64,000 nucleotides of DNA from assembly GCA_029855935.1 (NCBI GenBank), contig JAGSHN010000030.1, positions 39,528-103,527 on the forward strand. The letters run 5' to 3'. The first letter of the stretch is position 1, and each line of letters opens with the position of its first letter. The translations under genes were made by a program, and so were the position numbers. Source of the DNA: Candidatus Thorarchaeota archaeon (GTDB lineage: Archaea > Asgardarchaeota > Thorarchaeia > Thorarchaeales > Thorarchaeaceae). Below the pieces are notes generated by a model that made no database searches, was not told the origin of the DNA, and was given only the letters and a program-made list of their open reading frames with translations. Shown here piece by piece: positions 9,495-40,526 of the stretch.

Positions 9495-11225
9495 ATGCTG
9501 GCTCCTGTGATCAAGGCTCTGCCGTTCGGCATTGCCGTATTCGACAGCGGCGGTAGGCTGCACTTGGCCAACAGCAGATGGTGCAGGCTCTTTGGAGTCA
9601 AGGAACGCGACGCAAGAAGCCTTGTTCTAAAAGACCTTCACGGCGACGGCCCCCTTGAGAGAGTACGTTCCCTATTTCTTCTTTTCGAGCAGCGTCCCAG
9701 CGAGGAACATGCTCCGATCAACTTGGAGAGCAGCGATGACCACACTGGGCCAATCACGGTATTTCCCTTGCAGAGCGAAGGCTCCTTCCACGGGCTACTC
9801 GTGATGGAGGATGTCCCACGCGGAATCGTCTCCAAGCTGGAGGCAACGTTTAGTGGAATCGTCGGTTCGGCAGTTGTGGTTCACAGGCCTGATGGTAAGA
9901 TCGTGTACGCCACTCCAGAGTTGGCGGCAATGGTTGGAATTGGCCAAGATGAGATACTCCAGAAGGACATAACAGACCTTGAATATGGCCTCACGAAGAG
10001 ACGGCTTGCAGACAGGCTCAAGAGACTCAGACAGAAGGGCGGACAGATGACGTTCCGGACAAGGATTGTGAGCCGTGCTGGCAACAACATTCCCTGCCGA
10101 GCGAAAGACCTGTGCCTTGGTGTGGACACAATGAGTCTCATCATCAGTATGTTCACACCAACCCGAGCGCAGGACCAGCTTCTACTCCGTCCGGTCTACT
10201 CTGAGCTCGCAGGACGTGCCTTCGAGGCCATTCCACTGCCAGCATTCGTGTGGGAACGCGTGAAAGGCCAGACTGTGCTGAGGATGTACAACAGGGCCGC
10301 CTACGAGTTCACCGACGGCAGGATTGCCAACTACACAGGGTTGCCAGTGGGCAGAATCTTTCCAAGAATGCCTGAGATTGACAGTGCAATCACGCATACT
10401 CTTGAGACCCATCATCCTATTGGTGGTGAGATACCGTGTGCGTGCAATGCCCTCGGGATGAACGGAATCTTCGTCTTCTCGTTTTCGTGGCTTGCTCCGA
10501 AGACCGTTCTCATGACTGTGATGGACATCACCCGCCACATCAGGACGCAACGTCGGCTTGAGCGTCAGACCAAGGAGCTGAGCGCATTTGCCCATGATGT
10601 CAACCACGATGTGAAGAACCTCTTGCAGCAGATACTGATAGAGGTGGACCTTCTCACCGAGGACCACGACCGTTCTCGGGCCGAGCGCGTAGTCGAGCTT
10701 GTGGGCAAGATCACAAGGGTCCTCCAAGAGTCTGTCGAACTGGCAGATGCAGGTCAGATCATTGGAAGACCGGTGGTCACACCGCTGGAGCGACTTGTCA
10801 GAGAGGCCTCAGAACTCCTCGGCCTCCCGCCTCGAGCCGTGAGTATGAACGCCTTGCCGACTGTGAGATGCGACCCCTCACGCATATTGAGGGTGTTCCT
10901 CAACCTGTTCTCAAACGCCATCCAGCACGGCAAGGCAAGAAGCATTCGAGTGAGATGGTATCCGTCCTCCAGGCGCCTCACTGTTTCAAATGACGGCGTG
11001 CTTGTGGACGAGGAGATTCGCAGGAAGATGTTCCGCGAGCGGGTGTCGAGTGACAGACAGGGCGGAAGAGGGCTTCTCATTGTCCGACGGATAATTGATG
11101 CTCACGGCTGGTCGATACGCCTGCTCGATACAAAGAGGACTACTTTTGAGATCAGGATTCCGGCACACGCAATCGTAGATGATAGGAAAAAGGCTGCTTC
11201 GGAAGGCGAGCCTGAAGAGAAGTGA
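9495..11225 (+). CDS. PAS-domain sensor histidine kinase
   Basis: Three PAS-like segments, H-box HDVKN, N-box NLFSNAIQHG, NDG and GRGL boxes. Confidence 0.88.
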   Translation: MLAPVIKALPFGIAVFDSGGRLHLANSRWCRLFGVKERDARSLVLKDLHGDGPLERVRSLFLLFEQRPSEEHAPINLESSDDHTGPITVFPLQSEGSFHGLLVMEDVPRGIVSKLEATFSGIVGSAVVVHRPDGKIVYATPELAAMVGIGQDEILQKDITDLEYGLTKRRLADRLKRLRQKGGQMTFRTRIVSRAGNNIPCRAKDLCLGVDTMSLIISMFTPTRAQDQLLLRPVYSELAGRAFEAIPLPAFVWERVKGQTVLRMYNRAAYEFTDGRIANYTGLPVGRIFPRMPEIDSAITHTLETHHPIGGEIPCACNALGMNGIFVFSFSWLAPKTVLMTVMDITRHIRTQRRLERQTKELSAFAHDVNHDVKNLLQQILIEVDLLTEDHDRSRAERVVELVGKITRVLQESVELADAGQIIGRPVVTPLERLVREASELLGLPPRAVSMNALPTVRCDPSRILRVFLNLFSNAIQHGKARSIRVRWYPSSRRLTVSNDGVLVDEEIRRKMFRERVSSDRQGGRGLLIVRRIIDAHGWSIRLLDTKRTTFEIRIPAHAIVDDRKKAASEGEPEEK

Positions 11226-11353: not shown

Positions 11354-11593
11354 CTACTTGGTCCTCTTGATGAACCAGATGAACTTGCCGTCCTCCTCGT
11401 TCATCCCGAGGATCTCGTGGCCGGTACGTTCCGCCCATGCCGGGAAGTCCTTCTTGGTCCCGATGTCAGTGGCTATGACTTTCAGGACCTGCCCGACCTC
11501 CACATTCTGAATCTCCTTCTTCAGCTTCAGTACGGGCATCGGACATCGAAGGCCTGATGCGTCAAATTCTCTCGCAAACTCGTAGTCGGTCAT
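11354..11593 (-). CDS. tusA: TusA/SirA family sulfur carrier
   Basis: DASGLRCPMPVL (CPxP), G.VL.V.ATD, W...GH; start at ATG 11593. Confidence 0.9.
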   Translation of the reverse strand: MTDYEFAREFDASGLRCPMPVLKLKKEIQNVEVGQVLKVIATDIGTKKDFPAWAERTGHEILGMNEEDGKFIWFIKRTK

Positions 11594-11780
11594 TGTGCAT
11601 CGTCGTCGCACGCCAGCTGAGCCCTATTATTCGTTTTCGTATGTGAAATGTCAATTTTTGAAATCGTCATCAGGTGATTGAGTTCGGTTGCAGGCTGTAA
11701 GAGTCGCGCCTCCAAAATGTGCTAGTTTCGTCAGACTTATCTGGATGATTGGCGGACTCCGAACACCTAGGTGAAGAGCT

Positions 11781-12176
11781 ATGGCAGTCTTCCAATTGCT
11801 ACTACTTGTTCTGGTAGGACTGGCCATCGGGACAATGTTCTCGGGTTTCATGCTTGCCCGTAGAATGGGAATGTTCCTGATGATGCAGGTGATGATGTTG
11901 ATGCTGTCGATGTTTGTGGCGTTCGGCGCCCTTGCTGTTGGGCTGCTCCTTCCGCCGCAGGTCCCTGCTCAATTCGACCTTCTGCATCTCATCCTGATTG
12001 TCGACCTGATCCTTGTGCTCCTCGCTCTGCTGATGGAGTTCGGTCAAGTCGTCCCAATCTTGATGAAGACTATGCAGGGCGCACCAATGCACAGCAGCCA
12101 CATCACAAACCTGCTCGTGCTGTTCTTTCTGCTACTCGGGCTTGTGATGTACTACCCGATCCTAGCAGTCCTATAG
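11781..12176 (+). CDS. Small Met-rich 4-TM membrane protein
   Basis: 131-aa hydrophobic ORF directly upstream of dsrE; function unknown. Confidence 0.6.
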   Translation: MAVFQLLLLVLVGLAIGTMFSGFMLARRMGMFLMMQVMMLMLSMFVAFGALAVGLLLPPQVPAQFDLLHLILIVDLILVLLALLMEFGQVVPILMKTMQGAPMHSSHITNLLVLFFLLLGLVMYYPILAVL

Positions 12177-12191
12177 GAGGATGAAGAGAGA

Positions 12192-12554
12192 ATGCCATCA
12201 CTGTATATCATTGGTCAGTGGGGCCCTGAGGCCGCCGAGCGCTGCTACGGACCATTCGTGACTGGGACTACCGCTCAGGCACAGGAGATTGATGTCACCA
12301 TCTTCCTGATGATGGACGCCGTCTGGCTCGTCAAGAAGGGTGTGCCTGAGAAGATCAAGGCTCCGGGATTCCCGCCCCTGCCGGAACTCATCGACGCGTT
12401 TCTTGAGGCTGGTGGGAAGATTCAGGTCTGTTCGAACTCTGCAGAGTTCAGAGGTCTGAGCGAGAAGGACCTCTATGATGAGCGGATCGAGATTGCCGGA
12501 GCGGCCACCATGGTGGACGGTATCTTCAAGCACGACCGGTACATTGCGTTCTAG
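12192..12554 (+). CDS. DsrE family sulfur-relay protein
   Basis: V.IFLMMDAV.L, GG.IQVCS...FRG, IAGAAT; preceded by GGAGG. Confidence 0.85.
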   Translation: MPSLYIIGQWGPEAAERCYGPFVTGTTAQAQEIDVTIFLMMDAVWLVKKGVPEKIKAPGFPPLPELIDAFLEAGGKIQVCSNSAEFRGLSEKDLYDERIEIAGAATMVDGIFKHDRYIAF

Positions 12555-12893
12555 GGGATGCTGGGCCAATCGGCCCCTCCTCTATCCTATTTTTCTCGGA
12601 ATTGCAGTCGACCCAGAGAAGAGTCTGATTGTGGCGCTCTCCTCAGACCGATGAGCATCTCTGACTCAGAGACGATACCCGTCGGGAGTGCACGCCGTTC
12701 AAACCATGTTCGTCAGAGGTCACGTGAGGCCTCTGGATTGGGCTGCCAATGATCGTCACTCAGGTCCGTGTTCTTGACGACGCGGCCACGAGGAGGGTGC
12801 TCGCACCGTGTGGAGCCAATAGAAATAGTTGGTGGGACGCTCTTCCGACCCGGGCATAGCCGCGTCAGAGGAGCGACCCGCTCGGCAGTGCGA

Positions 12894-13127
12894 CTACTTC
12901 ACGCACTCGAAGTACAGTGCCCACTCGCCGTCATCAATCTCCTCGACACCAAGGAACTTGTTCTTCGTCTTTGCGATCTCTCTCTGAACAGAGTCCACCG
13001 CGGGTGGATGGTCAATCAGGACCTTAAGTACGGTCCCCGGTGCCAGCTTCATCAGAGTCTGTTTCGTGCGCAAAGCCGGGTAGGGACACACTTGTCCCCG
13101 CACATCAAGCTCTTCATCATAGTCCAT
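12894..13127 (-). CDS. tusA: TusA/SirA family sulfur carrier
   Basis: LDVRGQVCPYP, G.VL.VLIDHP; last gene of Hdr operon 1. Confidence 0.88.
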   Translation of the reverse strand: MDYDEELDVRGQVCPYPALRTKQTLMKLAPGTVLKVLIDHPPAVDSVQREIAKTKNKFLGVEEIDDGEWALYFECVK

Positions 13128-13155
13128 CTTTCTGTCTACCTCCATTATGTCTTCT

Positions 13156-14196
13156 CTATTCCTTCAGCGACCACGCGAGGCGATAGGGATCGCTTGGATC
13201 CTCCAGTAGCTCCACAGCACCCTCCTGTTGGAGAACAAGAAGGTGGTAGTGGACCTTCTCGGGTGGCGCCTCCAGTCGTTGAGCTATCTCGACTGTGGTG
13301 GCCTCACCAACGGCCGAGAGTTCGCTCGCAATCCTCTCGCGCAGAGGCCTCTTGACCTCCGCTGGAGTGCGTTTGGCCTTACGTGCCTGAGATGCAGTGA
13401 CCCTTGAGTAGTCAGCCTCACCAATCTCGAAGAGTCCTGCCCCCAGTGCCTGATCAAGCACGGCCTTCCCGCGCTCCGTCAGTGCGATGACTGTCGTATA
13501 GCCCTTCTTGCTGCCCGCAAAGCCGCAAGAGATATCGGCATGCGTGGCCACAAAGTCCGTGCAGTACTCGCAGGGCGTCATCTTTGTGGTCTTGCCGTCA
13601 TCCGTCTTCCGCATGTTGTTGGAACAGAACAGGCCAATCTTGAGTACACTAATGCCAAGAGTCTCCTCCCAACGCGACACCCCACGTAGCTCGCACGGCA
13701 GCCCGACCACTGCGAGTCTACCACGCGTGTCGCGCTGATGCCGGATGAGATGCTCCATCACGCCGCTCGGAGAGTATCTGGTCCCGGCTAGGGAGGGTAT
13801 GTCGTCCGCCTTCTCGACGACCATAGGCTCAGGTGAGTACTTCTCTCCCGTCACCCCCACCACAGCATCGACATCGCCGTTCTCGAGAAGGAACTTGAAC
13901 AGTGTCGTCACAAAGCCGCCATTCGATGCACTCTCCAAGATCGCCTCGTCTTTGGAGCGGACCGAGACGACCGCAAGAGGCTCCTCGATCTCAGCGGGTA
14001 CCTGTTCGGGGTGTGCCTGTGGACAGATGTCAAAACATCGTCCGCAATGGTCGGCACCGCGTCGCAGGATGCATTTGCCCGTCAGAGTCGGTACGCCGTC
14101 CTTCATTGTGATGGACTTGCAGGTACCAACGCATAGGCCGCAGCCCTCGCACAGGCCGCGGTCAATCACCTGTTCCTTAAGCAGATCGAAGCTCAC
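13156..14196 (-). CDS. FrhB/FdhB-family (F420-interacting subunit) with N-terminal ferredoxin and C-terminal winged HTH
   Basis: CEGCGLCVGTC and CGRCFDICP; ASNGGFVT, GTRYS, VGLPCE, IGLFC, C.YC.DF...ADIS.G FrhB motifs; GTG start 14196 after GGAGTGG. Confidence 0.82.
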   Translation of the reverse strand: MSFDLLKEQVIDRGLCEGCGLCVGTCKSITMKDGVPTLTGKCILRRGADHCGRCFDICPQAHPEQVPAEIEEPLAVVSVRSKDEAILESASNGGFVTTLFKFLLENGDVDAVVGVTGEKYSPEPMVVEKADDIPSLAGTRYSPSGVMEHLIRHQRDTRGRLAVVGLPCELRGVSRWEETLGISVLKIGLFCSNNMRKTDDGKTTKMTPCEYCTDFVATHADISCGFAGSKKGYTTVIALTERGKAVLDQALGAGLFEIGEADYSRVTASQARKAKRTPAEVKRPLRERIASELSAVGEATTVEIAQRLEAPPEKVHYHLLVLQQEGAVELLEDPSDPYRLAWSLKE

Positions 14197-15439
14197 ATGA
14201 CCACTCCCTGATAACACCCTGTTCATCAGTTGAAAACGAAACGCGGCTACAGCCGTCCTCAGACCGCGCGTGAACGGCCTTGATCTCAAGAGGACCCACG
14301 CAGTACGTGTCAAAGCCGTTCTTGGCGGACTTCACAGGTCTCTTGAAGCCGCCGAAGTAGACGTTCGACAGGACCTCGTTGCCGCCAATAGTCCGAATCT
14401 TGTCAATGACGCCCTCAAGCGCCTCGATGTCGTGCTGGTCCAGTGCCGTCAGAAGCCCGTCCTGAGCAGCACGGAGCTCTGACCGCAGCTCGCGGGTCTC
14501 ATCACTCACCTGAATCCCTGCTGCAGCCTCGTAGGCCTCGATCAGATTCAGAGCAACAGAGATGCCATAGCGGCCGTAGATTGTGGCAGCTATCTGAGGT
14601 GCCTCCTCAATCGGACGAGCCACCATTATGTCGGCAAGCTCGTCGCCTGTTGATGGATTGCGTCCTGGAAACTTGAAATGGGAGGCGAGATGAAACCTGA
14701 AGAACGTCCCCACAACATCCACCAGCGAGCGCGTTATCTCATCAGGTCTGTCGCCAAGCCGGTCTGTCGCGCAGTCCGTGGCGACGGTATCCACCTGCAA
14801 GTTGACCGCCAGGGAGCCAAAGTACCCGATCATTCGACCGGGCGGGTCGTCAACCATCCCGACACAGCCCCTGCACGGAGTATCGAAGTCTATGCAGCGC
14901 TGGGCACATCTCGCAGAGAGGACACCACTACATGCCAGCCCGAGATTGTTGAAGCATTTCTCCCTGTTCGACCAGTCAGGCACGCGGATGATCTTGTCAA
15001 ACTCCTCGTCAGTGAAGTGGCGCTCGCACTCCGAGCAGAGAGGCTGACGTTGAGCAGATTGCCCCTCAATGACTGAGAGGAGTTCATCCGGACTTGGCGC
15101 ACAACCGAGGACTGAGGCCACTGGGGAAAGATATTCGGTCACCGGGACCACATCTGCTCCCTTCTGATTCATCAGTCCGAATATGCCACCAGTGTACGGA
15201 CAGGTGCCGTACAGAATCAACTTCTTTCCTCTACTCAGAAGCTCTCTGAGTCTTGCCTCGTCGGACTTTCGCGCGTATCCGGTGATAACGACAAAGTCGG
15301 CGTCATTGTCACTGCCGCTACCGCCGTCAATGAGAGGATGAGAGACAAACTCCACAGAGCTGTTCTTCGCCAGAGTCAGTAGATCCCACGCACAGCGCTC
15401 GCAGCCCCGCAACTGGACAACACTCAGTCTCACCATCAC
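14177..15439 (-). CDS. MvhG-like hydrogenase small subunit fused to a degenerate large-subunit remnant
   Basis: GCERC, GTC..TGG, GCAP, C.EC, C...G..C.G, C...C....PCRGC small-subunit pattern; C-terminal RPIEEAPQI region resembles the MvhA N-terminus. Confidence 0.78.
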   Translation of the reverse strand: MMVRLSVVQLRGCERCAWDLLTLAKNSSVEFVSHPLIDGGSGSDNDADFVVITGYARKSDEARLRELLSRGKKLILYGTCPYTGGIFGLMNQKGADVVPVTEYLSPVASVLGCAPSPDELLSVIEGQSAQRQPLCSECERHFTDEEFDKIIRVPDWSNREKCFNNLGLACSGVLSARCAQRCIDFDTPCRGCVGMVDDPPGRMIGYFGSLAVNLQVDTVATDCATDRLGDRPDEITRSLVDVVGTFFRFHLASHFKFPGRNPSTGDELADIMVARPIEEAPQIAATIYGRYGISVALNLIEAYEAAAGIQVSDETRELRSELRAAQDGLLTALDQHDIEALEGVIDKIRTIGGNEVLSNVYFGGFKRPVKSAKNGFDTYCVGPLEIKAVHARSEDGCSRVSFSTDEQGVIREWSCELRSA

Positions 15440-15840
15440 TTTGCACCTCCGGGACAGGGCGGGGTCTCTGGGTCGTACTTCCGCTCGAGGATGTCCTCAA
15501 AGTCGCCGACAATGGTGTCGCCCTCAGCAGCCCTCGATGTGTACATCGTCACGCAGTCGGTGCTGTATCCCATCTCGACAAGGAACTTCTTCACTATCTT
15601 GACCCGTCGGAGCGTGATCAGGTTGGCGTCACTGAAGTGGCAGGCTCCAAAGCAGCAGCCGATGACTGCCACCGCCTCCGCTCCGTTGTTGAAGGCATGA
15701 AGAATCTCCCGTGCGCCCGCACGGCCAGCACACGGCACTCTCACTATGTGTATCTCGTCGCTGTATCTCATTCGTTGGACACCAGCGGTGTTTGCAGCAC
15801 CCTGGGCACAATTCTGACAGAGAAAGGCCACAATCATCAC
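15436..15840 (-). CDS. mvhD: MvhD-like [2Fe-2S] subunit
   Basis: IVAFLCQNC, RVPCAGR, GA..V...GC..G.CHF. Confidence 0.88.
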   Translation of the reverse strand: MMIVAFLCQNCAQGAANTAGVQRMRYSDEIHIVRVPCAGRAGAREILHAFNNGAEAVAVIGCCFGACHFSDANLITLRRVKIVKKFLVEMGYSTDCVTMYTSRAAEGDTIVGDFEDILERKYDPETPPCPGGAK

Positions 15841-17873
15841 TCATCGCCTCCTTCAAGCTCTGCTGCCACGGACAATAGCGCACTGACCTCTGCGTTCAGC
15901 TGCGAGTCCCTGAAGTTCCGAATCTGGATTGCACCCACTGGACAGGCCGGAACGCACGCACCGCAGCTCTTGCACGCAACATCGTTCACCTTCGGCTTCT
16001 CCCCCTCGGCCACCGATATGGCACCAACGGGGCACGTCGTCACGCATCCGAGGCAGGATATGCACAGTTCCTCGTCAATCACAGCGGTGTCCATCCGTTT
16101 CTCCAAAAAACCCTGGACAAGGGGTTGTGCAGCAGCCGATGCAGCGCCGCCAGCATGTGCCACCGTCTGGGTGATGTCTTTCGGCCCCTGAATGGCCCCG
16201 GCCAAGTAGACTCCATCGCGACTGCTGCGGACAGGACCCATCTTGACGTGGTACTCCTTCGCGAAGCCCTCCTTTGCTCGGAGCAGCTCCAGCTTGGCAC
16301 TGAGTTTTCCAAAACCCCTCGGCGCGACCATTCCCGCGCTCAGAACAACAAGGTCCGCCTCGATGCACATCGGCATATGGGTCAGTGTGTCCTCGACCTC
16401 GACGCGGATCTTGTCGCCTGTAGGGTCAGGGGTGATGGTCGAGGGACGACCTCGGATGAATCTGATGCCCTTCTTCTGGGCGCGCTTGTAGTACTCCTCG
16501 TAGTACAGTCCTGGTGTCCGGATATCAATGTAGCAGAAGTACACCTCAGTGTCGGGTAGATGGTCCTTGATTATGCCGGCATTCTTGATGCCGAACATGC
16601 AACACACGCCGGTACAGTATTCATTACCCACCTGATCGTTGCGCGACCCGACACATTGGACGACCACCACGGTCTTGGGCACTTCCCCATTAGACGGCCG
16701 TACTATCTTGCCTTTTGTCAGCGTGGTGGGCGCGAGCATGCGTTCCATCTGTAGCTGCGTTATGATGTCCGGATGGCCGTAGTGATAGGCGGTTATCTCC
16801 GTCGGGTCGTACTCCTCATAACCGGTTGCAACTACGATTGTCCCGACTTCGAATGTGCGCTCCTCCTTCGTCATCGAGAAGTCCACAGCGTCAACGGGGC
16901 ACACAATGACGCACGAGCCGCAGTCGATGCAGTGCTTCGTGTCCAGAGTGAAGACTGACGGGAGGGCCTGTGGGAAGGGCTTGTAGATTGCCTTGCGCAT
17001 CCCGAACCCGTGGTCCCACTCGTTCTCCACCTCGACAGGACAGACGTCTGCACATCGTCCACAAGAGGTGCAGTTGTCATGTACGTAGCGCGGCTTTGTT
17101 GTCACCTCGACCACAAAGTGGCCCATCGTTCCCTCTACATTGGTCACCTCACTGAGTGTGAGCACCTCAATGTCGGGATGACTCATCACTCCGTTGAGCA
17201 GCGGGCTGACCGTGCACATCGGGCACTCATTAGTGGGGAATGTCTTGTTTAGCATCGTCATATGCCCGCCAATCGAGGTCTCTTTCTCGACGAGGACCAC
17301 TGGAATCCCGAGCTCAGCAAGGTCCATTGCCGCCCTGAGGCCAGCGACGCCGCCTCCAACGACCATTGTGCGTTTTGTGATCGGAATCTTCCTCGTGGCC
17401 ACGGGCTCTTTCTTCGAGGCCCGTGCGACACCAGCAGCGACCATCCGCTTTGCCTTCTCCGTTGCCGCCTTCTTGTCATCAGTGACCCAAGAACACCACT
17501 CGCGTATGTTCACCTGAGTGTGCATATGCGGGTTCAGTCCGAGATCACTAATGGCCTTGGCAAAGGTCGGCCAGTGCTGCTCGTACGAGCACGACGCAAC
17601 GACCGTTCTATTCAGTCCGTGCTCCTTCACGGCCTTCTGAATGAGCTCAATGCCCTGCTTTGAACACATAAACAGGTAGTCAGTCGAGTATTCCACGTTT
17701 GGCAGATGAGAGGCGAACTCGGCAACATCCTTGACATCAACGACACCCGCTATGTTCTCACCACAGTGACACACGAACACTCCGACGCGGGGCCGTTCCT
17801 GCTCCGCCGGTTCATCCTTGTTCTTCGCCTTCCTCGTCTTCCTCTGCTTGCCTTTCTTCTCGGACTTGCTCAT
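15837..17873 (-). CDS. hdrA: Heterodisulfide reductase subunit A (full length)
   Basis: GVFVCHCG.NI, GGGVAG, KTFPT..C..C, inserted and C-terminal ferredoxins, QCVGSR, C..VCC, GPKDI. Confidence 0.95.
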   Translation of the reverse strand: MSKSEKKGKQRKTRKAKNKDEPAEQERPRVGVFVCHCGENIAGVVDVKDVAEFASHLPNVEYSTDYLFMCSKQGIELIQKAVKEHGLNRTVVASCSYEQHWPTFAKAISDLGLNPHMHTQVNIREWCSWVTDDKKAATEKAKRMVAAGVARASKKEPVATRKIPITKRTMVVGGGVAGLRAAMDLAELGIPVVLVEKETSIGGHMTMLNKTFPTNECPMCTVSPLLNGVMSHPDIEVLTLSEVTNVEGTMGHFVVEVTTKPRYVHDNCTSCGRCADVCPVEVENEWDHGFGMRKAIYKPFPQALPSVFTLDTKHCIDCGSCVIVCPVDAVDFSMTKEERTFEVGTIVVATGYEEYDPTEITAYHYGHPDIITQLQMERMLAPTTLTKGKIVRPSNGEVPKTVVVVQCVGSRNDQVGNEYCTGVCCMFGIKNAGIIKDHLPDTEVYFCYIDIRTPGLYYEEYYKRAQKKGIRFIRGRPSTITPDPTGDKIRVEVEDTLTHMPMCIEADLVVLSAGMVAPRGFGKLSAKLELLRAKEGFAKEYHVKMGPVRSSRDGVYLAGAIQGPKDITQTVAHAGGAASAAAQPLVQGFLEKRMDTAVIDEELCISCLGCVTTCPVGAISVAEGEKPKVNDVACKSCGACVPACPVGAIQIRNFRDSQLNAEVSALLSVAAELEGGDE

Positions 17874-18751
17874 AGCTCTACCGCCTCCAGTTTGAAGTCC
17901 GGTGCGATCGTCTGGTACTCGAGTCCAATGTCATCCAGTCCCATTGCAAAGGCCGTGAGCTGCGAGATGTGAATGACCGGGACGTTGAAGTTAGTCCCGA
18001 ATTTCTCGTTCAGGCTCTTCTGACCAGTGTCGAACTGTAGATGGCAGAAGGGGCAGATGTCCAGGATTGCCTCGGCCCCAACCTCCGTTATGGCCGCCAT
18101 CTTCTCGCCCAACATCTCCAGCGAGACCTCGATGTGACCTGCTCTCACACCGCCGCCCGCTCCGCAGCACGCGTGTTTCCTGCGGTAGTCAATCAACTCG
18201 ACGCCGAGTGCCTCAAAGTAGTCTTCAAGAATCGTCGGGTCCTCGGGATCGTCAATCTGTTTGAGGTGGAATGGCCGAAGGAAGTGACAACCATAGTGGA
18301 TTGCACCACGCAGACGCACCTTGCGCTTGAGATAGTCCCGAATCCCATAGGGCCCAATGTCAAAACCGAGGACCTGAGCAATGTGTTTGACCTCCTGATT
18401 CGCCTCGACATGATAGCCGAGATCCGCCAGCCGGGCGTTCACATCCTTTTTCAGCTCCTCGTCGTTCTTCAGGGCGTGGTTTACCTCGAAGAGTGTGCCG
18501 AAGCATCCGTTGCACACAGTGAGGAGGTCTGCACCGTTCGCCTCCGCGATGGCGAGGTTTCTTGCTGCAGCCACCATCCAGTCCGGCTTGTTGAAGGAGC
18601 GGAAGACTCCGGGTGCAGGACAGCAGCCCGCGCGCTCCATCTCCTTGATCTCGATTCCCAGCTTGTCCAGAACAAATCGTGTCGTGGACTCAATGGCGGG
18701 ATATCGGTTGGGCATTATGCAGCCCAGAAACAACGAGTATGACTGTGCCAC
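17870..18751 (-). CDS. hdrB: Heterodisulfide reductase subunit B
   Basis: Two CCG domains: FLGC, CCPAPG, CNGC, HYGCH, CCGAGGG, CPFC. Confidence 0.95.
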   Translation of the reverse strand: MAQSYSLFLGCIMPNRYPAIESTTRFVLDKLGIEIKEMERAGCCPAPGVFRSFNKPDWMVAAARNLAIAEANGADLLTVCNGCFGTLFEVNHALKNDEELKKDVNARLADLGYHVEANQEVKHIAQVLGFDIGPYGIRDYLKRKVRLRGAIHYGCHFLRPFHLKQIDDPEDPTILEDYFEALGVELIDYRRKHACCGAGGGVRAGHIEVSLEMLGEKMAAITEVGAEAILDICPFCHLQFDTGQKSLNEKFGTNFNVPVIHISQLTAFAMGLDDIGLEYQTIAPDFKLEAVEL

Positions 18752-19293
18752 TAACGTTCTTCCTCCTCGTCATGGTCCTCTGGTCTCGGTGGCAACTGGA
18801 AGAGCGTTTTGCCGAGCTTCTCCAGTTCTTCGGGATAACAGTAAACAGTGGGAGGGAGCTCGGGCAGGCCGAGCTCCTTTCTTATCTTGCGAATCCTGTC
18901 GTTGATGGGGACAGCGTGGCCCGTCTTGTGTAGAAGGTCCACCGTCTTGCGATGCTTGTCGCTGATGAATCCCCTCGCTGATGCCAGGTTTCTGAGGGCA
19001 ATTATCGCATCTGTCACTTGCAGGTCGCGTGGACATCTGTCATAGCATTGGTAGCATGTCGTGCAGAGCCATATGTCGGGATCCGAGAGGACCACCTCGA
19101 TGCTGAATGCAGCCTTGCGCATCACCTCGCGGGTACGCATCGCTGTCCAGCGCCCAGAGGGGCAGCTGGCGGTACAGGTCCCGCACTGAATGCAGAGATT
19201 GGGATCGAACCCGGCTGCCTTCAATGTCTCCTCGATGGTCGGATCCCTCTTGCCGGAGTCCAGCACGCACGGTGGGTTCTTGAAGACGGACAA
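18751..19293 (-). CDS. hdrC: Heterodisulfide reductase subunit C
   Basis: CIQCGTCTASCP and W.CTTCYQC..RCP. Confidence 0.93.
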   Translation of the reverse strand: MSVFKNPPCVLDSGKRDPTIEETLKAAGFDPNLCIQCGTCTASCPSGRWTAMRTREVMRKAAFSIEVVLSDPDIWLCTTCYQCYDRCPRDLQVTDAIIALRNLASARGFISDKHRKTVDLLHKTGHAVPINDRIRKIRKELGLPELPPTVYCYPEELEKLGKTLFQLPPRPEDHDEEEER

Positions 19294-19315
19294 GACGGAC
19301 CACCTCGTCTGACAT

Positions 19316-19672
19316 CTACGCTCCGAAGAAGACCGTCTGGTCGGCCTCTTTCATTGTGTTGACGAGCCTGTGGATGTCGATCACCTCGACACCGTCAATC
19401 AGGCTGCTGGCATCGATGCCGCGCTCCTTGAGACACAGACCACAGGCGATCACTTTGCCGCCGGCGTCCATAAAGTCCTGAAGGACCTGAACAACTTGGA
19501 AGAACTGCTTCGCCTCCTGTCCCTTGACGGCACAGTAGACGCCATCCTCCATCAGGATGATGGTGGTCTCACAGTCCTCCATCACAGACGTAAGTCCAAT
19601 TCTGGCGGCCGTGAACGCTCCAATCTTGTCGTAGGGAGGTGTTGCGATTATTAGTGCGAACTTCTTGCTCAC
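19316..19672 (-). CDS. DsrE/DsrF family sulfur-relay protein
   Basis: TPPY, LMEDGVY, V.ACGLC..ERGI; GTG start 19672 after GAGGTGA; first gene of Hdr operon 1. Confidence 0.85.
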   Translation of the reverse strand: MSKKFALIIATPPYDKIGAFTAARIGLTSVMEDCETTIILMEDGVYCAVKGQEAKQFFQVVQVLQDFMDAGGKVIACGLCLKERGIDASSLIDGVEVIDIHRLVNTMKEADQTVFFGA

Positions 19673-19870
19673 GTCTCTCACCTCGTTTTGGGTGTTAACG
19701 GCTCGCGGCGATGCTCTAAATAAATGTATGGCTATGAGGCTTCTCTCCAAACAATCGTTTACTGATGAGGGAAAGAGATAAATAAACGAGTGGCGGGGAC
19801 CGAGGCAATACGCCCACGTGCACATATATATCGAGGGACGTCATATTCCGAAGGCCACGGAGACAGAGAC

Positions 19871-20389
19871 GTGAAAGCCAGACTGCCTGTTGACACTCTC
19901 CGAGAACCAGAAAGGGTTCTTGAGATGCTTGAGAGTGCGGCAGGCATTGACGAGCTGGACATCAGTATCATCCTCATTCTGCAGGAAAACGGACGCGCAT
20001 CATTCAATGAGATAGCCAAGCGACTGGGCGTGAGCGTGGCAACGGTCAGCAAGCGTGTCAGGGCACTTGAGGAGAGGGGGATCATAAAGGGGTACGCGGC
20101 CGTCATCTCCTGTGAGAACCTCGGGTTCACCGAGAACCTGTGGCTGATGGTTCACACAAAACCGGGGGCTGACGTAGACTCAATAGGCAAGCAGATCTCG
20201 GGGCTCATCGGCGTCAAGTGTGTGTACAGCATCTATGCCGACTTTGATCTCCTCGTACACATCTGCTGCGCGACACAGGAAGAGATTGCCGCAACACTGC
20301 AGGCCATCGGCAAGATTCGTGATGTCGTCCGCGTCACCAAGATGAGCGTCTGCTCGAAGATAAAAGAGGAGTTCAAGATAGTCCTCTAG
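19871..20389 (+). CDS. Lrp/AsnC family transcriptional regulator
   Basis: IDELD..I...LQENGR.SF.EIA..LGVS.ATV..RV..LE..GIIKGY plus RAM domain; start uncertain (19790/19871/19925). Confidence 0.92.
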   Translation: MKARLPVDTLREPERVLEMLESAAGIDELDISIILILQENGRASFNEIAKRLGVSVATVSKRVRALEERGIIKGYAAVISCENLGFTENLWLMVHTKPGADVDSIGKQISGLIGVKCVYSIYADFDLLVHICCATQEEIAATLQAIGKIRDVVRVTKMSVCSKIKEEFKIVL

Positions 20390-20486
20390 CGTCGACTGGA
20401 CGCTCCCGCGAGACTCCAGTGGAGTGCCATTGCCACGGAGAGTACCTCTAAAAGGACTACAGACGGGAGTTCGCCGGCGGAGACGC

Positions 20487-21962
20487 ATGGCGACAGAGAA
20501 CGATCAGCGGGTGCTTCTCTCAGTGGGCATAGATGTGGGGACAGCCACATCCCATCTGGTATTCAGCAGACTCACCCTTCAGCGGGATCCCCAGAGCAGG
20601 ACCAACAAGTTCGAGGTGATGAAGAGGGAGATACTCTTCGAGGGGCCAATTCATCTCACTCCACTCATTGGAGAGACAAGGATAGACTACGACCTGCTGA
20701 AGGATATGCTGCTAGAGGACTATAGAGAGGCGGGTGTGGATCCCGGCGATGTTGACACCGGCGCAGTGATTGTGACCGGTGAGAGCGCTAGGCGTCAGAA
20801 TGCCGACGAGATTGTCCGCGCGCTCGCAGGTGAGGGTGGCAGATTTGTAGCGGCAACTGCTGGACCCAATATGGAGAGCCTACTGGCCGCCTACGGCTCC
20901 GGTGCGGTGGAGCTCTCAAGAAGACAGGGCATCACTGTCATCAATGTCGACATAGGTGGAGGCTCCTCAAATGTCGCAGTATGCTCAAAGGGTCGTGTCG
21001 TTGATACCACTGCTATCAGCGTCGGCGGACGGCTTGTCGCATTGGATGAACACGGTAGAATTCGAAGGATAGAGGCGCCGGCCAAGACCATCGCCCGTCA
21101 TCTCGGTCACACGCTCAGGGTCGGCCAGAGTATTGAGCCCACGGTGATTGGCGAGATCGTGACGCAGCTTGCCGATGCCCTCGCTCAGGTCTTGAGGGGA
21201 CCACAGATTGACCAGCTGGCGCAGCAGCTGATGTTGACCTCCCCTCTGAAGGAGAACTACACACCCGACCTGATTACGTTCTCTGGAGGAGTCGCGGAGT
21301 ACATCTACGGCCTTGAGAAACGGTCCTTTGGAGATATTGGTCGGCAGCTCGCGGAGCAGGTTGCGATGCGCGTGGACTCACTCGGTATGTCGTTGGGGGA
21401 GGTCGAGCAGAGGATCAGAGCCACTGTCATCGGAGTGGGGCAGAACACCCTCCGTGTAAGCGGATCAACGACGTACCTCTCAGAAGGCGTCAGATTCCCG
21501 TTTCGGGATCTTCCCGTCGTCGAACCACTGCTGTCAGAGCGCTGGTGGAAGAAGGGGAGCGTCGTTGAAGAGATAGGGCACGCGCTGAAGAGGTTTGACC
21601 TCCGAGAGGCGAGCGACGCATTCCTCCTCTCCTTCAGGGGACACCTCCCTCCTTCCTATGAGATTCTGGCAGAGTTCTCGCGCGGGCTTGTGCGGGCGGT
21701 CAGGGACCACTGTCAGGACGGAAGGCCACTGTTTCTCTGCTTTCAAGAGGACATCGGCAACAGTGTGGGGAACATCATCCGCAGAGAGACGGACTTTCAA
21801 GGGCCGATCATCTCTGTCGACGAGCTCGATGTGCGCGAGGGAGAGTACGTGGACATTGGAGAGCCCGTCATCGGTGAGTCTGTCGTGCCTGTGATTGTCA
21901 AGACCCTGGTGTTCGCAGGTAGTGACAGCAGACAACACAAGAGGAGAGCCTCGAAGACGTAG
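20487..21962 (+). CDS. eutA: Ethanolamine ammonia-lyase reactivating factor EutA-like ATPase
   Basis: LLSVGIDVGT.TSHLVFS, GAVI.TGE, FVAATAGP..E, NVDIGGG, FSGGVA, IRATVIG, VP.IVKTLVF. Confidence 0.88.
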   Translation: MATENDQRVLLSVGIDVGTATSHLVFSRLTLQRDPQSRTNKFEVMKREILFEGPIHLTPLIGETRIDYDLLKDMLLEDYREAGVDPGDVDTGAVIVTGESARRQNADEIVRALAGEGGRFVAATAGPNMESLLAAYGSGAVELSRRQGITVINVDIGGGSSNVAVCSKGRVVDTTAISVGGRLVALDEHGRIRRIEAPAKTIARHLGHTLRVGQSIEPTVIGEIVTQLADALAQVLRGPQIDQLAQQLMLTSPLKENYTPDLITFSGGVAEYIYGLEKRSFGDIGRQLAEQVAMRVDSLGMSLGEVEQRIRATVIGVGQNTLRVSGSTTYLSEGVRFPFRDLPVVEPLLSERWWKKGSVVEEIGHALKRFDLREASDAFLLSFRGHLPPSYEILAEFSRGLVRAVRDHCQDGRPLFLCFQEDIGNSVGNIIRRETDFQGPIISVDELDVREGEYVDIGEPVIGESVVPVIVKTLVFAGSDSRQHKRRASKT

Positions 21963-24173: not shown

Positions 24174-27100
24174 GTTTGAATCGGACTAGAAGTAGGGTTG
24201 AAACCTCCTCCTGCTTGGCAGTGGCACTGGGTGTCTCGTCCTCGGTTTGAATCGGACTAGAAGTAGGGTTGAAACATTCTTGATGGTAATATAAATATCA
24301 CGATTAGACTTTGGTTTGAATCGGACTAGAAGTAGGGTTGAAACCGCACATGTGCTCCTCGAACAACTTGCTGTCATAGATGGTTTGAATCGGACTAGAA
24401 GTAGGGTTGAAACATGGAGTGTTATTTAATGAAACGATTTATGCTTCATGTTTGAATCGGACTAGAAGTAGGGTTGAAACCACAGACAATGGGACTCAGA
24501 AAAATATTCAACATCTTGGGTTTGAATCGGACTAGAAGTAGGGTTGAAACCTGTGAAGGTGTGATTGGACACGGAGTAGTAGACAGGTTTGAATCGGACT
24601 AGAAGTAGGGTTGAAACTCACAGTGCGAGGACTGGCACCCTCTACGTGGATGAGTTTGAATCGGACTAGAAGTAGGGTTGAAACGTTCGAGGACGGTGGC
24701 GCCGTTGGTTTCGTTAGGAACGAGTTTGAATCGGACTAGAAGTAGGGTTGAAACTCTATGAGAAAGTCTCTGGGTCGTGGACTGCCGTCTCGTTTGAATC
24801 GGACTAGAAGTAGGGTTGAAACCAATTTTTCTAGTTCCTTATCCTTCTCCTCCTGCATCGTTTGAATCGGACTAGAAGTAGGGTTGAAACGATGCAGAGA
24901 ACCGACTCTGGCACGAGGTCTCTTCGAGGTTTGAATCGGACTAGAAGTAGGGTTGAAACATATCTCTACTCCTTAGAGGCGTTTCGAAATCGAAACAAGT
25001 TTGAATCGGACTAGAAGTAGGGTTGAAACTATCAACTCGCGGGCCGAAGAGCTCTAGGCGCATGCGTTTGAATCGGACTAGAAGTAGGGTTGAAACGGAG
25101 TTGAAGAAAGAAGATGGATGTACTACTGCTATGTTTGAATCGGACTAGAAGTAGGGTTGAAACCCCAGTACGCCGACACTCTCCTCATCGCGTCGCATGA
25201 CGTTTGAATCGGACTAGAAGTAGGGTTGAAACTGTAGTACAGCACTGCAAGCGCCACCAGCACCATCACGGTTTGAATCGGACTAGAAGTAGGGTTGAAA
25301 CTCACTTGCTTTTGATGCTTTAGTCTTTTGACAAGCATGTTTGAATCGGACTAGAAGTAGGGTTGAAACACAGCACTTCCAATACTTGTAATTCCGCTGT
25401 ATACCCAGTTTGAATCGGACTAGAAGTAGGGTTGAAACCGACAACGACATCCGCATCGTCGCGGGTGATGATCTGTTTGAATCGGACTAGAAGTAGGGTT
25501 GAAACTGTGATCCGATCGGAACAGGAACGAATGGATTTGTTGGTTTGAATCGGACTAGAAGTAGGGCTGAAACCGTCGTCCGCGAGCGTCACTGTCTGCA
25601 GCCTGCCCTGTTTGAATCGGACTAGAAGTAGGGTTGAAACATGAGGCTGAGGAGCTCGCGCTGGCGATGTACGTAGAGTTTGAATCGGACTAGAAGTAGG
25701 GTTGAAACTCACGTCTTCAGGGGGTTCCACAACCCCAGCCTTTATGTTTGAATCGGACTAGAAGTAGGGTTGAAACGAGAAGCTGACTGACCTACTTCGA
25801 GCCTTGACCATCTGGTTTGAATCGGACTAGAAGTAGGGTTGAAACCAATGACTGCAGGCTCTTTTCGAACAATTCATGCAGAGTTTGAATCGGACTAGAA
25901 GTAGGGTTGAAACCCTCGAAGGAGGCGAATACTTCATACGATGTCTCATGTTTGAATCGGACTAGAAGTAGGGTTGAAACCCGCTCTCGGGTCTCTGTTC
26001 CCAGAGGGAGCACCAGTGTTTGAATCGGACTAGAAGTAGGGTTGAAACAGGGACCCCACCTCGACTATCACCCGCTTCTCCCTCTGTTTGAATCGGACTA
26101 GAAGTAGGGTTGAAACCCATTTTTTCCCAGACCATTAGATGATCAGACAACTGGTTTGAATCGGACTAGAAGTAGGGTTGAAACCTGGTGCATACATCGA
26201 GTTCGGCGTCAAGTTCTACGTGTTTGAATCGGACTAGAAGTAGGGTTGAAACTAGCGAGTGTCGCCATGTCAAGGTTACGACGAATCACGTTTGAATCGG
26301 ACTAGAAGTAGGGTTGAAACGAACACGCTACAACTACAACTCGGCAAGACAGGAAACGTTTGAATCGGACTAGAAGTAGGGTTGAAACGTGCCATCTGAT
26401 CCTCCAAGACCATGTGACCATCGAGTTTGAATCGGACTAGAAGTAGGGTTGAAACGTGCCATCTGATCCTCCAAGACCATGTGACCATCGAGTTTGAATC
26501 GGACTAGAAGTAGGGTTGAAACTCGTGAGTATCAGAGGCTGTGTGATTCGCGACATCGGTTTGAATCGGACTAGAAGTAGGGTTGAAACTTGAACACACT
26601 ATATCGTGATGGAATATCCTGAATTTGTTTGAATCGGACTAGAAGTAGGGTTGAAACTCTGAGTACCCGTTCTGAGGTACCCAGATCGATTCGAGTTTGA
26701 ATCGGACTAGAAGTAGGGTTGAAACGATATTGTTCCTTATATGTCTCCGCATCCTTTCTCCATGTTTGAATCGGACTAGAAGTAGGGTTGAAACCTCTGA
26801 TATTCGACTGAAGCTGCTTCTTATTCTTTGAGTTTGAATCGGACTAGAAGTAGGGTTGAAACCAGCTGGCGCAGGAGCGCGTCCTCGAGGTCATCCTGGT
26901 TTGAATCGGACTAGAAGTAGGGTTGAAACCGACATGGACGGGTTTGGCTACTATGCACTGATTGAGGTTTGAATCGGACTAGAAGTAGGGTTGAAACCAA
27001 AGAAAAGAGGTGCAGAGAGGAGAGAGCGACAACAAGTTTGAATCGGACTAGAAGTAGGGTTGAAACCATAGCTGACGACATAGTCCGGGTCGCCCAACTG

Positions 27101-27475
27101 TTCGTTTGAATCGGACTAGAAGTAGGGTTGAAACCACACAGGGCAATGGAAGAACCAGTCAACGCCTCGAAGTTTGAATCGGACTAGAAGTAGGGTTGAA
27201 ACATATGTAGGTCGAGGTCAAGCGTGGTCCGTAGGACACCGTTTGAATCGGACTAGAAGTAGGGTTGAAACCGGTCATAGTGATATCATCTGCGATGAGT
27301 GTCCACGAGTTTGAATCGGACTAGAAGTAGGGTTGAAACCAAGGCTCCTGACTCTCTCGAAATGCGCCTTGTCCCGGTTTGAATCGGACTAGAGGTAGGG
27401 TTGAAACCTATGTAGTCACTGATGATCAGGCGGAGGAGCTGCGTGTTTGAATCGTACTATAAGTAGGGTTGAAGC
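24174..27475 (+). CRISPR. CRISPR array, 31-bp repeat GTTTGAATCGGACTAGAAGTAGGGTTGAAAC, 49 repeats / 48 spacers
   Basis: Repeats counted by hand from 24174 to 27445; spacers about 35-40 bp; variant repeats at 25543, 27377 and 27445; no cas genes in the window. Confidence 0.98.
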
Positions 27476-39209: not shown

Positions 39210-40526
39210 CTATACCTTCACTATCGGGTCTGGGAGCTTGAGGTCCTTGTGACCCTGCTGTTCAAAGATGAATCTCGCAGCGTCCATCAGACTCTTCTCG
39301 ATCCCAGCAATGTTGTTGTTCGTGGCAACTATGAGGTTGGCCCGGACGATATATCCGTTCTCATCGCACTCATAGTTGTGGATCAGCGTACCGCGCGGGG
39401 CCTCTACTATGCCGACACCGTCGCCAGCACGCGGCTCCACGTCTGACAGCTTGACGTCGGTGCTCACAATCTCTGGGTCCTCAAGCAACGCCTGAATGTT
39501 CTCTGCGGCCTGGACCATCTCGACGACACGCGCGTAGTGGTAGGCGAACGTGTGATGCGATGGCCGGCCCACAAGTTCCCGCATCTCCTCAAGCGCAGCC
39601 TGCGCCATCGGTGTCGCCATCTTGTCGGCCACATTGCAGCGGGCGAGCGTGTTGGCGCGCCAGATGCCATCCGGGTATCCTGCTGGCCTGTAGTAGATGT
39701 GCGTCGCGTACGAGTGGTTCGGTACGTGCTCGCCCACATACTTCGGATAGTCCTGTGGATCAAAGTCCACCTCGACCTTGCCGTCGGGGTTCATCACGCG
39801 GACCTTGCCATCGTAGATGTCGTGGACACCGTTGTTGGTCAGGCCCACGTAGTAAGTCGGCGTGACAGCGACCTTTGTGATGACATCGATGTAGTCGTTG
39901 ACGACCTTCTTTGCCAGGTCGACCGTCTTCTGTAGATTCTCCATCATCTCAGGGATCTGCTTGAGCCACTCGTCACGGACATCCTCTGACAGCGGACTCA
40001 GCATTCCACCGGGAATGCCCAGCGTTGGATGAATCGCCTTCGCGCCGACGGCCCTGCAGAGTTCCTGACCGAACTGCATCAACTTGATTGCCTGTACTGC
40101 GACATCCGGCAGATGCTTGAGAACGCCCGCCACGTTCCTGACGCCCGGAGGCGCGAACGGACCGAACACAAAGTCTGGCGCCGCGAGGGCGTAGAAGTGA
40201 ATCGCGTGGGATGAGAGCTGCTTTGCCTCGATAAGCAGCCTTCGCAACTTTATCGCCGCGGGAGGCGGAGTCACTCCCCACGCGGCCTCGACGGCCTTCA
40301 CAGAGGCGAGGTGGTGCGGAATCGGACAGATACCGCAGATTCTCGGTACAATCCGCGGTGCCTCCTCCATCGGGCGGCCCTCGAGGAACTTCTCAAAGAA
40401 CCTGGTGCTCGTCACGTTGAACTGAACGTCCTTGACCTTGCCGTCCTTGCCGAGGGTAATGGTCAGAGCTCCGTGGCCCTCAAGACGCGTGACGGGGTCT
40501 ATCTTGATGACTCTCTCTTCGGTCAT
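39210..40526 (-). CDS. mvhA: F420-non-reducing (group 3c) hydrogenase large subunit lacking C-terminal L2 motif (VhuA type)
   Basis: DPVTRLEGH, RICGICP..H (L1), EAPRGTLIH, NLIVAT; ends without DPCxxC. Confidence 0.93.
   Translation of the reverse strand: MTEERVIKIDPVTRLEGHGALTITLGKDGKVKDVQFNVTSTRFFEKFLEGRPMEEAPRIVPRICGICPIPHHLASVKAVEAAWGVTPPPAAIKLRRLLIEAKQLSSHAIHFYALAAPDFVFGPFAPPGVRNVAGVLKHLPDVAVQAIKLMQFGQELCRAVGAKAIHPTLGIPGGMLSPLSEDVRDEWLKQIPEMMENLQKTVDLAKKVVNDYIDVITKVAVTPTYYVGLTNNGVHDIYDGKVRVMNPDGKVEVDFDPQDYPKYVGEHVPNHSYATHIYYRPAGYPDGIWRANTLARCNVADKMATPMAQAALEEMRELVGRPSHHTFAYHYARVVEMVQAAENIQALLEDPEIVSTDVKLSDVEPRAGDGVGIVEAPRGTLIHNYECDENGYIVRANLIVATNNNIAGIEKSLMDAARFIFEQQGHKDLKLPDPIVKV

Follow-up and report, generated by a model that had tools for sequence, protein, structure and literature searches.

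Many non-methanogenic archaea and bacteria without coenzyme M (CoM) and coenzyme B (CoB) possess HdrABC, whose substrate in these organisms is a long-standing gap. Among the described complexes, the closest functional analogue of the system treated here is Elp-Hdr of Methanothermobacter marburgensis (PMC12350162, PDB 8rvu), in which, when nickel is limiting, the place of Mvh is taken by a truncated, cofactor-free FdhA (ElpA), an MvhD homologue and an FdhB-like F420H2 oxidase (ElpB). The present system is a minus-strand operon of eight genes, dsrE-hdrC-hdrB-hdrA-mvhD-mvhG::relic-frhB::wHTH-tusA (wHTH, winged helix-turn-helix), located at 12894–19672 of a 64,000-nucleotide stretch (the window) of the genome of a Candidatus (Ca.) Thorarchaeota archaeon (GenBank assembly GCA_029855935.1, contig JAGSHN010000030.1), and delimited by a listing of open reading frames (ORFs) together with Pfam scans (Table 1). 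As in Elp-Hdr, a flavo-Fe-S subunit of the FrhB/FdhB family (here FrhB'), which sits on a dead, truncated catalytic relic, would feed HdrABC by way of an MvhD homologue. It differs from Elp-Hdr in its scaffold, which is an MvhG fused to a stub of the [NiFe] large subunit (the fusion protein MvhG') and not a truncated FdhA, no FdhA-like gene being present; in an acceptor that is probably not the heterodisulfide CoM-S-S-CoB; in the co-encoded sulfur carriers; and in that F420 use is unproven. The Asgard module has the same design as Elp-Hdr, reached from a hydrogenase instead of a formate dehydrogenase. We suggest that the operon specifies a nickel-free, hydrogenase-derived, electron-bifurcating complex whose HdrB would act on an S-S bond presented by a carrier protein, a proposal to which we give an even chance.

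Two further systems require comparison. With Mvh-Hdr (PDB 5ODC, 9SW2) the locus shares HdrA, HdrB, HdrC, MvhD and MvhG, all of which are full length and closely related; unlike Mvh-Hdr it has no functional MvhA, the two CxxC pairs being lost, it carries the extra FrhB', and its host is not a methanogen. The sHdr systems with TusA, DsrE and LbpA, for example that of Hyphomicrobium denitrificans (PMC11094781, PMC6067878), likewise place an Hdr-type enzyme amid TusA and DsrE genes, with carrier-bound sulfur as the proposed substrate. From these the Asgard locus is set apart by a long, bifurcating HdrA, a single HdrB and HdrC, the absence of LbpA from the locus, the arm formed by MvhD, MvhG' and FrhB', and strictly anaerobic hosts. 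The module is thus a member of neither Mvh-Hdr (it has no Ni-Fe site), nor Elp-Hdr (the scaffold is another), nor sHdr (HdrA is long, HdrB and HdrC are each present once, and LbpA is not linked). DsrK, the CCG-domain protein of the DsrMKJOP complex of sulfate reducers, reduces a protein-bound trisulfide on DsrC and so offers a precedent for an HdrB-type site acting on a carrier protein. That complex is, however, located in the membrane and does not bifurcate, and a search of this genome for DsrC/TusE, which might have served as the terminal carrier, gave no member of the family.

No publication combining HdrABC, FrhB and DsrE/TusA was found in the literature searched. An earlier sequence-only reading of this DNA had called the complex undescribed, which needs qualifying: the sulfur part has been anticipated, since a figure legend in a 2025 preprint proposes that Hdr acts through TusA/DsrE-bound persulfides in an Asgard archaeon, the legend itself making no mention of a nickel-free module. 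Published reconstructions of Asgard metabolism label such genes plainly as MvhADG-HdrABC; for strain MK-D1 a single hydrogenase, "MvhADG-HdrABC", was assigned (Imachi 2020). M. maripaludis has been mentioned as having an operon in which a DsrE/DsrF-like gene accompanies HdrB/C homologues.

Every gene of the operon named in the sequence-only reading lies where that reading had put it, as judged by Pfam, and the same holds for the adjoining second tusA, the Met-rich membrane protein and the second dsrE. The operon junctions measure, in order, +22, -1, -4, -4, -4, -20 and +10 nt. The -20 junction is that between MvhG' and FrhB' when the latter begins at GTG 14196, a start which we prefer because the N-terminus (M/V)SF(D/E)LLK is conserved in 13 orthologues; it becomes -50 nt with the alternative ATG at 14226. 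Since the genes overlap or lie 10–22 nt apart, the arrangement fits translational coupling.

HdrB is related to the HdrB subunits of solved Hdr complexes (8rvu_b, 5odc_B) at 5.5e-97, its two halves both preserving the CC and CxxC motifs. It is approximately 55% identical to enzymes which reduce CoM-S-S-CoB, and it retains all of their cluster ligands; Pfam and the alignment to 8rvu_b bear out the two intact methanogen-type CCG domains seen earlier. HdrA, including its N- and C-terminal Fe-S domains, matches methanogen HdrA (9sfi_A, residues 3–657; also 5odc_A) across residues 27–674 with a value of 2e-203, as against 4.7e-42 for the short sHdrA 6tjr_A, which covers only the flavin core (residues 320–581). 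Both proteins are consequently of the methanogen and not of the sHdr type. The locus holds one HdrB and one HdrC, without the duplicates B1/B2 and C1/C2.

These observations bear upon a reversed, sHdr-like function, in which sulfane sulfur on the carriers would be oxidized at HdrB (to sulfite or another product) and the electrons would leave by the arm of MvhG' and FrhB', with F420 or NAD(P)+ as acceptor and perhaps in confurcation with those of reduced ferredoxin. TusA and DsrE proteins do feed sulfur to the Hdr-like complex of sHdr systems (PMC11094781), a preprint describing an Asgard culture contains a prediction that sulfite is released, and a NIR_SIR-type sulfite reductase was found neither in this genome nor in the genus. 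Yet HdrA is of the full-length bifurcating kind, HdrB and HdrC are single, Pfam scans revealed no GcvH/LbpA-type gene in the locus (genes of the GcvH family are on contigs C14, C16, C19 and C20), and the hosts, anaerobes by their gene content, offer no obvious outlet for the six electrons that each sulfur would yield. We therefore consider oxidation in this direction unlikely.

The association with sulfur carriers extends throughout the Asgard phylum. A pattern scan of one genome per species (185,579 species) located the core operon at 77 loci, all 77 of them in Asgard archaea, including Promethearchaeum syntrophicum MK-D1, Ca. Lokiarchaeum ossiferum and Ca. Harpocratesius repetitus. Protein homology searches with MvhG' gave at least 29 close relatives of Thor and Hermod type, and a phylum-wide search found it at full length in five Asgard families. 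Approximately 19 kb around each of 40 loci with full-length MvhG' was mapped using hidden Markov models derived from the window and from the first loci. The core hdrCBA-mvhD-mvhG'-frhB' is common to Thor-, Hermod- and Loki-type genomes, and TusA and/or DsrE is adjacent in 38 of these 40 loci; in the remaining two (L058 and L059) a contig end removes the upstream flank. The usual Loki-type order is Lrp< tusA dsrE dsrE dsrH dsrE hdrC hdrB hdrA mvhD mvhG' frhB' tusA, while the Thor-type order is Lrp< dsrE hdrCBA mvhD mvhG' frhB' tusA (dsrE dsrE dsrH), followed by a cassette of dsrE, membrane protein and tusA. Of the 40, 36 have a TusA downstream of FrhB' in the same orientation; many positions of this TusA, including VCPxPAL, are at least 90% conserved, and the cysteine of the CPxP motif is kept in 37 orthologues. 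In 33 related loci the gene immediately upstream of hdrC belongs to the DsrE family, its subtype being different in the Loki-type clusters. The earlier proposal that the Hdr operon is functionally tied to TusA and DsrE had named beforehand, as its refutation, a linkage that is not conserved; the linkage proved to be conserved across the phylum.

Within the present genome the carriers are similarly concentrated. Two of its three TusA genes and two of its six DsrE-family genes are found here, the CPxP cysteine being present in both TusA proteins and the active-site cysteine in both DsrE proteins. At no fewer than five other HdrB loci of the genome no carriers were found nearby, so that the clustering at this operon is far from what chance would give. 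Elsewhere in the genome there is a DsrE-DsrE-DsrH-like triple close to a contig start (G000:C12:2743-3790) and a TusA-DsrE pair (G000:C21:316469-317088). In sister Thorarchaeota such a triple directly follows tusA in the Hdr cluster; here it has been relocated, or the assembly is broken there.

MvhG' comprises two parts. Residues 2–255 align to the whole of MvhG (5odc_E, 1–293), and residues 3–260 of its AlphaFold2 model superpose on the same chain with Z 16.5 over 241 residues. Twelve cysteines are invariant among 30 homologues, sufficient for three clusters, and none beyond C192 is conserved in that set. The model has a mean predicted local distance difference test score (pLDDT) of 81.9 and a predicted template modeling score (pTM) of 0.86, the C-terminal part reaching pLDDT 84–97. 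This latter part (residues 264–419) superposes on FrhA (6qgt_A) with Z 12.6 and a root-mean-square deviation (rmsd) of 2.5 A, the 154 matched residues being spread over positions 39–403 of that chain; further matches are 5aa5_C (Z 11.7), HyhL (Z 10.0) and NuoD of complex I (Z 9.9). It retains roughly 155 of the approximately 450 residues of MvhA and has lost the Ni-Fe ligands. On the evidence of the model, the C-terminal part of MvhG' is a miniaturized, metal-free core of the [NiFe] catalytic subunit. The sequence-only reading had spoken of MvhG joined to a remnant: the remnant is real, whereas the MvhG part is no fragment but spans the entire protein. A prediction of the complex of MvhG' with FrhB' scored 0.00 with no controls run, and counts neither for nor against binding. 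Four Thorarchaeal MvhG' matches had been flagged with one TGA, raising the question of selenocysteine (Sec); the TGA is the terminal stop codon and the ORFs are open throughout.

The operon itself has no catalytic NiFe or Fdh subunit, as had been noted. A second Hdr cluster with a real hydrogenase (cluster 2) occupies 39210–49608 of the minus strand. Its NiFe large subunit of 438 residues, which matches Pfam only over the N-terminal 80 residues, is encoded beside a 307-residue MvhG, and there follow MvhD, two HdrA-like flavoproteins, HdrB, HdrC and a GltD/NfnB-like protein of 928 residues. One might suppose that MvhG' pairs in trans with this MvhA (39210–40526) to give an ordinary H2-dependent Mvh-Hdr, seeing that a group-3c-like large subunit is encoded just 25 kb away in the same window. 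However, the MvhA of cluster 2 overlaps its own MvhG by 4 nt, and the large-subunit position of MvhG' is filled in cis by the conserved, fused relic, which is modeled with high confidence. Such pairing, which had earlier been named as one outcome that would overturn the proposal, is most improbable.

FrhB', the donor subunit, is variable. Its model (pLDDT 81, pTM 0.78) resembles 8riu_B over residues 1–280 (Z 30.9 over 275 residues) and 8rja_E (Z 27.7), followed by FrhB (Z 26.6), Fsr (25.7), FdhB (23.8), ElpB (23.5) and the ferredoxin-dependent HCAR (21.6). By sequence also its nearest solved relatives are the F420-reducing modules of the Fwd and CO dehydrogenase (CODH) complexes of Ca. Ethanoperedens (8rja_E, 8riu_B) and the N-domain of Fsr. 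With Fsr (PDB 7NP8/7NPA) and these modules (8RIU/8RJA, PMC11493965) FrhB' shares the layout of a ferredoxin anchor plus a flavin domain, at Z 25–31, and Fsr offers the additional likeness of an FrhB module supplying sulfur chemistry. FrhB' departs from them in its winged helix, in its attachment to Hdr, in a putative rather than established dependence on F420, and in an internal deletion of approximately 45 residues, positions 45–91 of the Pfam FrhB_C model being unmatched.

Assignment of domain layouts by Pfam scans distinguishes four forms of this subunit. The 346-residue form with the deletion is present in Thorarchaeota and in one Hermod-labelled lineage (L010, L011, L058); a form of 383 residues with FrhB_C intact occurs in two loci of a Loki family (f22; L090 and L092); and in some 30 Loki-type loci a protein of about 826 residues carries a GltD/NfnB-like NAD(P)H module (Fer4_20 plus Pyr_redox_2) between FrhB_N and FrhB_C. 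The 928-residue protein of cluster 2 is related to this insert. The fourth form, in the single-contig genome of Ca. Harpocratesius repetitus (L074, 8568–9014), is a two-[4Fe-4S] ferredoxin of just 149 residues, with tusA and dsrE immediately after it; at least one lineage can thus manage with a donor arm that has no flavin domain. The N-terminal ferredoxin domain is thus the constant element, and in the zeta subunit of CODH such a domain serves as an anchor (PMC11493965). In a Sigynarchaeum-type genome (G282) the FrhB'::GltD gene (L079, 10151–12691) is broken by one in-frame stop codon, as a pseudogene, a sequencing error or a split gene; a selenocysteine reading does not apply, because the codon is TAA and not TGA.

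The C-terminal winged helix of FrhB' had been recognized in the sequence-only reading and is upheld by the fold: residues 280–346 are MarR/ArsR-like and match winged-helix regulators at Z ~10–11 with rmsd 1.3–2 A. Fold matching of these last 65 residues to DNA-binding proteins might suggest that FrhB' is a redox- or flavin-sensing regulator of the operon and not an enzyme subunit. That is very unlikely in our opinion, as frhB' overlaps mvhG' by 20 nt in a conserved position, Harpocratesius keeps the ferredoxin domain alone, the Loki-type orthologues bear the GltD insert, and a separate regulator of the Lrp/AsnC type is at hand.

As to the electron donor, the genome encodes Mtd and Mer (above the curated cut-off), three CofE proteins and a second, canonical FrhB/FpoF-like gene. 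CofE does not discriminate as a marker of F420 use, being present in 385 of 400 Asgard genomes. Searches with TIGRFAM and Pfam models yielded neither CofH (FO synthase) nor CofD in this genome, and the two were likewise not found in five other carriers of the cluster, namely two Thorarchaeota genomes that are 98% complete and three single-contig Lokiarchaeia (G313, G320, G135, G138, G143); Mtd was not found in those three Lokiarchaeia. Thorarchaeota thus present something of a paradox, in that Mtd, Mer and three CofE paralogues exist in genomes from which the two biosynthetic enzymes seem to be missing: the cofactor may be scavenged or formed by another route, or else these enzymes work with something different. 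F420H2 is a possible, though unproven, donor in this Thorarchaeon. It is an unlikely one in the Loki-type clusters, for which NAD(P)H, by way of the GltD module, is the obvious candidate. The earlier description of the complex as F420-linked is therefore weak. In its favor, FrhB' folds like F420 oxidoreductases and Mtd, Mer and CofE are encoded; against it are the failure to find CofH and CofD, the loss of about 45 residues of FrhB_C, and orthologues which carry an NAD(P)H module at that place or are reduced to a ferredoxin.

If the complex works as Mvh-Hdr, Fdh-Hdr and Elp-Hdr do, a hydride donor would be oxidized at the flavin of FrhB', possibly F420H2 in this Thorarchaeon and probably NAD(P)H, through the inserted GltD module, in most Lokiarchaeia. 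The electrons would then pass through the clusters of FrhB' and MvhG' to the [2Fe-2S] center of MvhD and on to the bifurcating flavin adenine dinucleotide of HdrA, from which one branch would presumably lead to ferredoxin and the other through HdrC to the two non-cubane clusters of HdrB. The relic stub may act as the scaffold, a role held in Elp-Hdr by the truncated FdhA (ElpA). The substrate of HdrB would not be CoM-S-S-CoB but, to go by the conserved gene context, an S-S bond on the co-encoded carriers; candidates are a persulfide, a trisulfide or a mixed disulfide of TusA or DsrE. Reduction of ferredoxin would be accompanied by the release of sulfane sulfur in the form of sulfide. The link to a sulfur relay is supported by conserved synteny and the chemistry is proposed.

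Conventional reduction of CoM-S-S-CoB, which the sequence-only reading had set against its own proposal, is unlikely, the McrA and ComA families not having been found in this 97.3% complete genome. A related possibility is that HdrB reduces a small (hetero)disulfide still to be identified, and that TusA and DsrE are merely co-regulated with it, for sulfur supply (thiol-cofactor, Fe-S or tRNA thiolation) or for detoxification. The close identity of HdrB to the heterodisulfide-reducing enzymes, with every cluster ligand kept, would agree with this, and Hdr without a known substrate is common among non-methanogens. It has to be set against the missing McrA and ComA, and against the presence of carriers at both ends of a single coupled operon throughout the phylum when five other HdrB loci have none. 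We rate a small disulfide as an unlikely substrate, if one to be kept in mind. Synteny, taken together with the failure to find McrA, ComA, DsrC and NIR_SIR, leads us to favor an S-S species presented to HdrB by a carrier.

Several points nevertheless weigh against the carrier-bound substrate and the electron path drawn above. Contact between HdrB and a carrier is putative, being deduced from gene context. The persulfide or sulfane/sulfide couple lies at about -270 mV, compared with about -140 mV for CoM-S-S-CoB, and the donor at -320 to -340 mV; the energetics are therefore tight, as such a couple is a much poorer high-potential acceptor for bifurcation. The identity of the donor is uncertain, given the outcome of the search for CofH and CofD in six carrier genomes, and FrhB' has an internal deletion here, varies among lineages and is cut down to a 149-residue ferredoxin in Harpocratesius. 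As the hdrC-proximal DsrE subtypes differ between Thor and Loki clusters, only the distal TusA is a fixed carrier. Lastly, all of the carrier genomes tested use selenium, and the carriers might therefore traffic selenium.

In the latter event the complex would convert a selenotrisulfide or perselenide on TusA or DsrE into selenide, the substrate of selenophosphate synthetase (SelD). In all 10 genomes checked the selD gene contains a single in-frame TGA (here at G000:C21:243308-244171), which is consistent with a Sec-containing SelD and with Sec use; the ten are five genomes of the genus, three of them with the cluster, and five others. The TusA-like YedF and YedE are predicted selenium genes (PMC9312934), TusAD transcripts of M. 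maripaludis rise on selenium depletion, and a TusA-YeeE is situated upstream in one Hermod-type locus. Sec is used by most Lokiarchaeia in any case, however, so that its co-occurrence with the cluster carries no independent weight; the cluster of this genome encodes no selenoprotein, selD lies outside the locus, and a bifurcating machine of eight genes seems oversized for a trace element. Selenium traffic appears quite improbable to us. Returning to sulfur, the most far-reaching form of our proposal is that a methanogen-type bifurcating Hdr would use a TusA/DsrE persulfide or trisulfide as its physiological high-potential acceptor, and that Asgard archaea, MK-D1 and L. ossiferum included, would conserve energy or balance redox by sulfur-driven bifurcation through a nickel-less hydrogenase. 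This we advance tentatively, as a possibility that may well fail.

The features of the operon and its immediate surroundings are collected in Table 1.

Table 1. Genes and domains of the Hdr operon and adjoining genes (positions in the window)
Feature	Position	Strand	Length	Characteristics
DsrE, first operon gene	19316..19672	-	118 aa	Cys in ACGLC...RG; Pfam DsrE 5e-18
HdrC	18751..19293	-		two [4Fe-4S] ferredoxin; Pfam Fer4_9, Fer4_17, Fer4_8; length equal to orthologues
HdrB	17870..18751	-		methanogen type; Pfam CCG x2, 1.6e-35
HdrA	15837..17873	-		full-length bifurcating type; match to methanogen HdrA 9sfi_A
MvhD/FlpD	15436..15840	-		[2Fe-2S] connector; Pfam FlpD 3.5e-32
MvhG-like fusion protein MvhG'	14177..15439	-	420 aa	
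MvhG domain of MvhG' (residues 1-255)	14675..15439	-		complete hydrogenase small subunit, three Fe-S clusters
[NiFe] large-subunit relic in MvhG' (residues 256-420)	14177..14674	-		no metal ligands
FrhB'	13156..14196	-	346 aa	N-terminal two-[4Fe-4S] ferredoxin domain, FrhB-type flavin/Fe-S domain, C-terminal winged helix; Pfam FrhB_N + FrhB_C
TusA, last operon gene	12894..13145	-		CPYP; Pfam TusA 5.3e-21; most conserved carrier of the cluster
Second DsrE	12192..12554	+		Cys in QVCSNSAEFRG; Pfam DsrE 1.9e-16; same cassette in sister Thorarchaeota
DUF5400-like Met-rich membrane protein	11781..12176	+	131 aa	upstream of dsrE, co-oriented; Pfam DUF5400 8.3e-6
Second TusA	11354..11611	-		CPMP; Pfam TusA 2.3e-24; 79-aa orthologue in L006
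Lrp/AsnC-type regulator	19790..20389	+		divergent from the operon; Pfam HTH_24, HTH_AsnC-type, AsnC_trans_reg

The operon DsrE starts with GTG at 19672, preceded by a GAGGTGA motif; a longer ORF from an ATG (to 19825) is disfavored because it would overlap the divergent regulator, which is present in most related loci as well. The true start of the second TusA is probably the ATG at 11593. The match of the membrane protein to DUF5400 is marginal (26.5 bits against a cut-off of 25); there is one copy in the genome, and it adjoins DsrE and TusA also in L006, L053 and L054. An EutA-like reactivase (20424–21962) and a PAS histidine kinase (9495–11225) flank the cluster, as they do in L006, a sister genome of 61% identity, and within the genus the conserved neighborhood therefore exceeds the operon. 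A low-GC stretch (0.47–0.49) at 24174–27475 holds an array resembling clustered regularly interspaced short palindromic repeats (CRISPR), with a 31-nt repeat ending in TTGAAAC and a period of ~67; no cas gene was seen among the large ORFs nearby.

The source genome measures 2.97 Mb and includes an archaeal small-subunit rRNA; the window corresponds to positions 39528–103527 of its contig C24. The nearest homologues of the window proteins are in metagenome-assembled genomes of Thorarchaeota. Only one public sequencing run contains DNA of the window, a hydrothermal vent metagenome which is the probable source, and none of the runs with this DNA is RNA.

An operon of this kind, conserved phylum-wide, points to one candidate class of substrate for the Hdr of organisms without CoM and CoB, namely carrier-bound sulfur. 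It provides a second and independent case, parallel to Elp-Hdr, of a dead catalytic subunit being reused as a scaffold. H2 metabolism would be overestimated where gene calls take MvhG' as a sign of a hydrogenase. Because the operon is present in MK-D1 and L. ossiferum, the carrier-sulfur idea can be tested in cultures. If true, it would place sulfur-driven bifurcation in the lineage closest to eukaryotes and would name an Hdr substrate for non-methanogenic archaea, with a bearing on the hydrogen-sulfur syntrophy models of eukaryogenesis.

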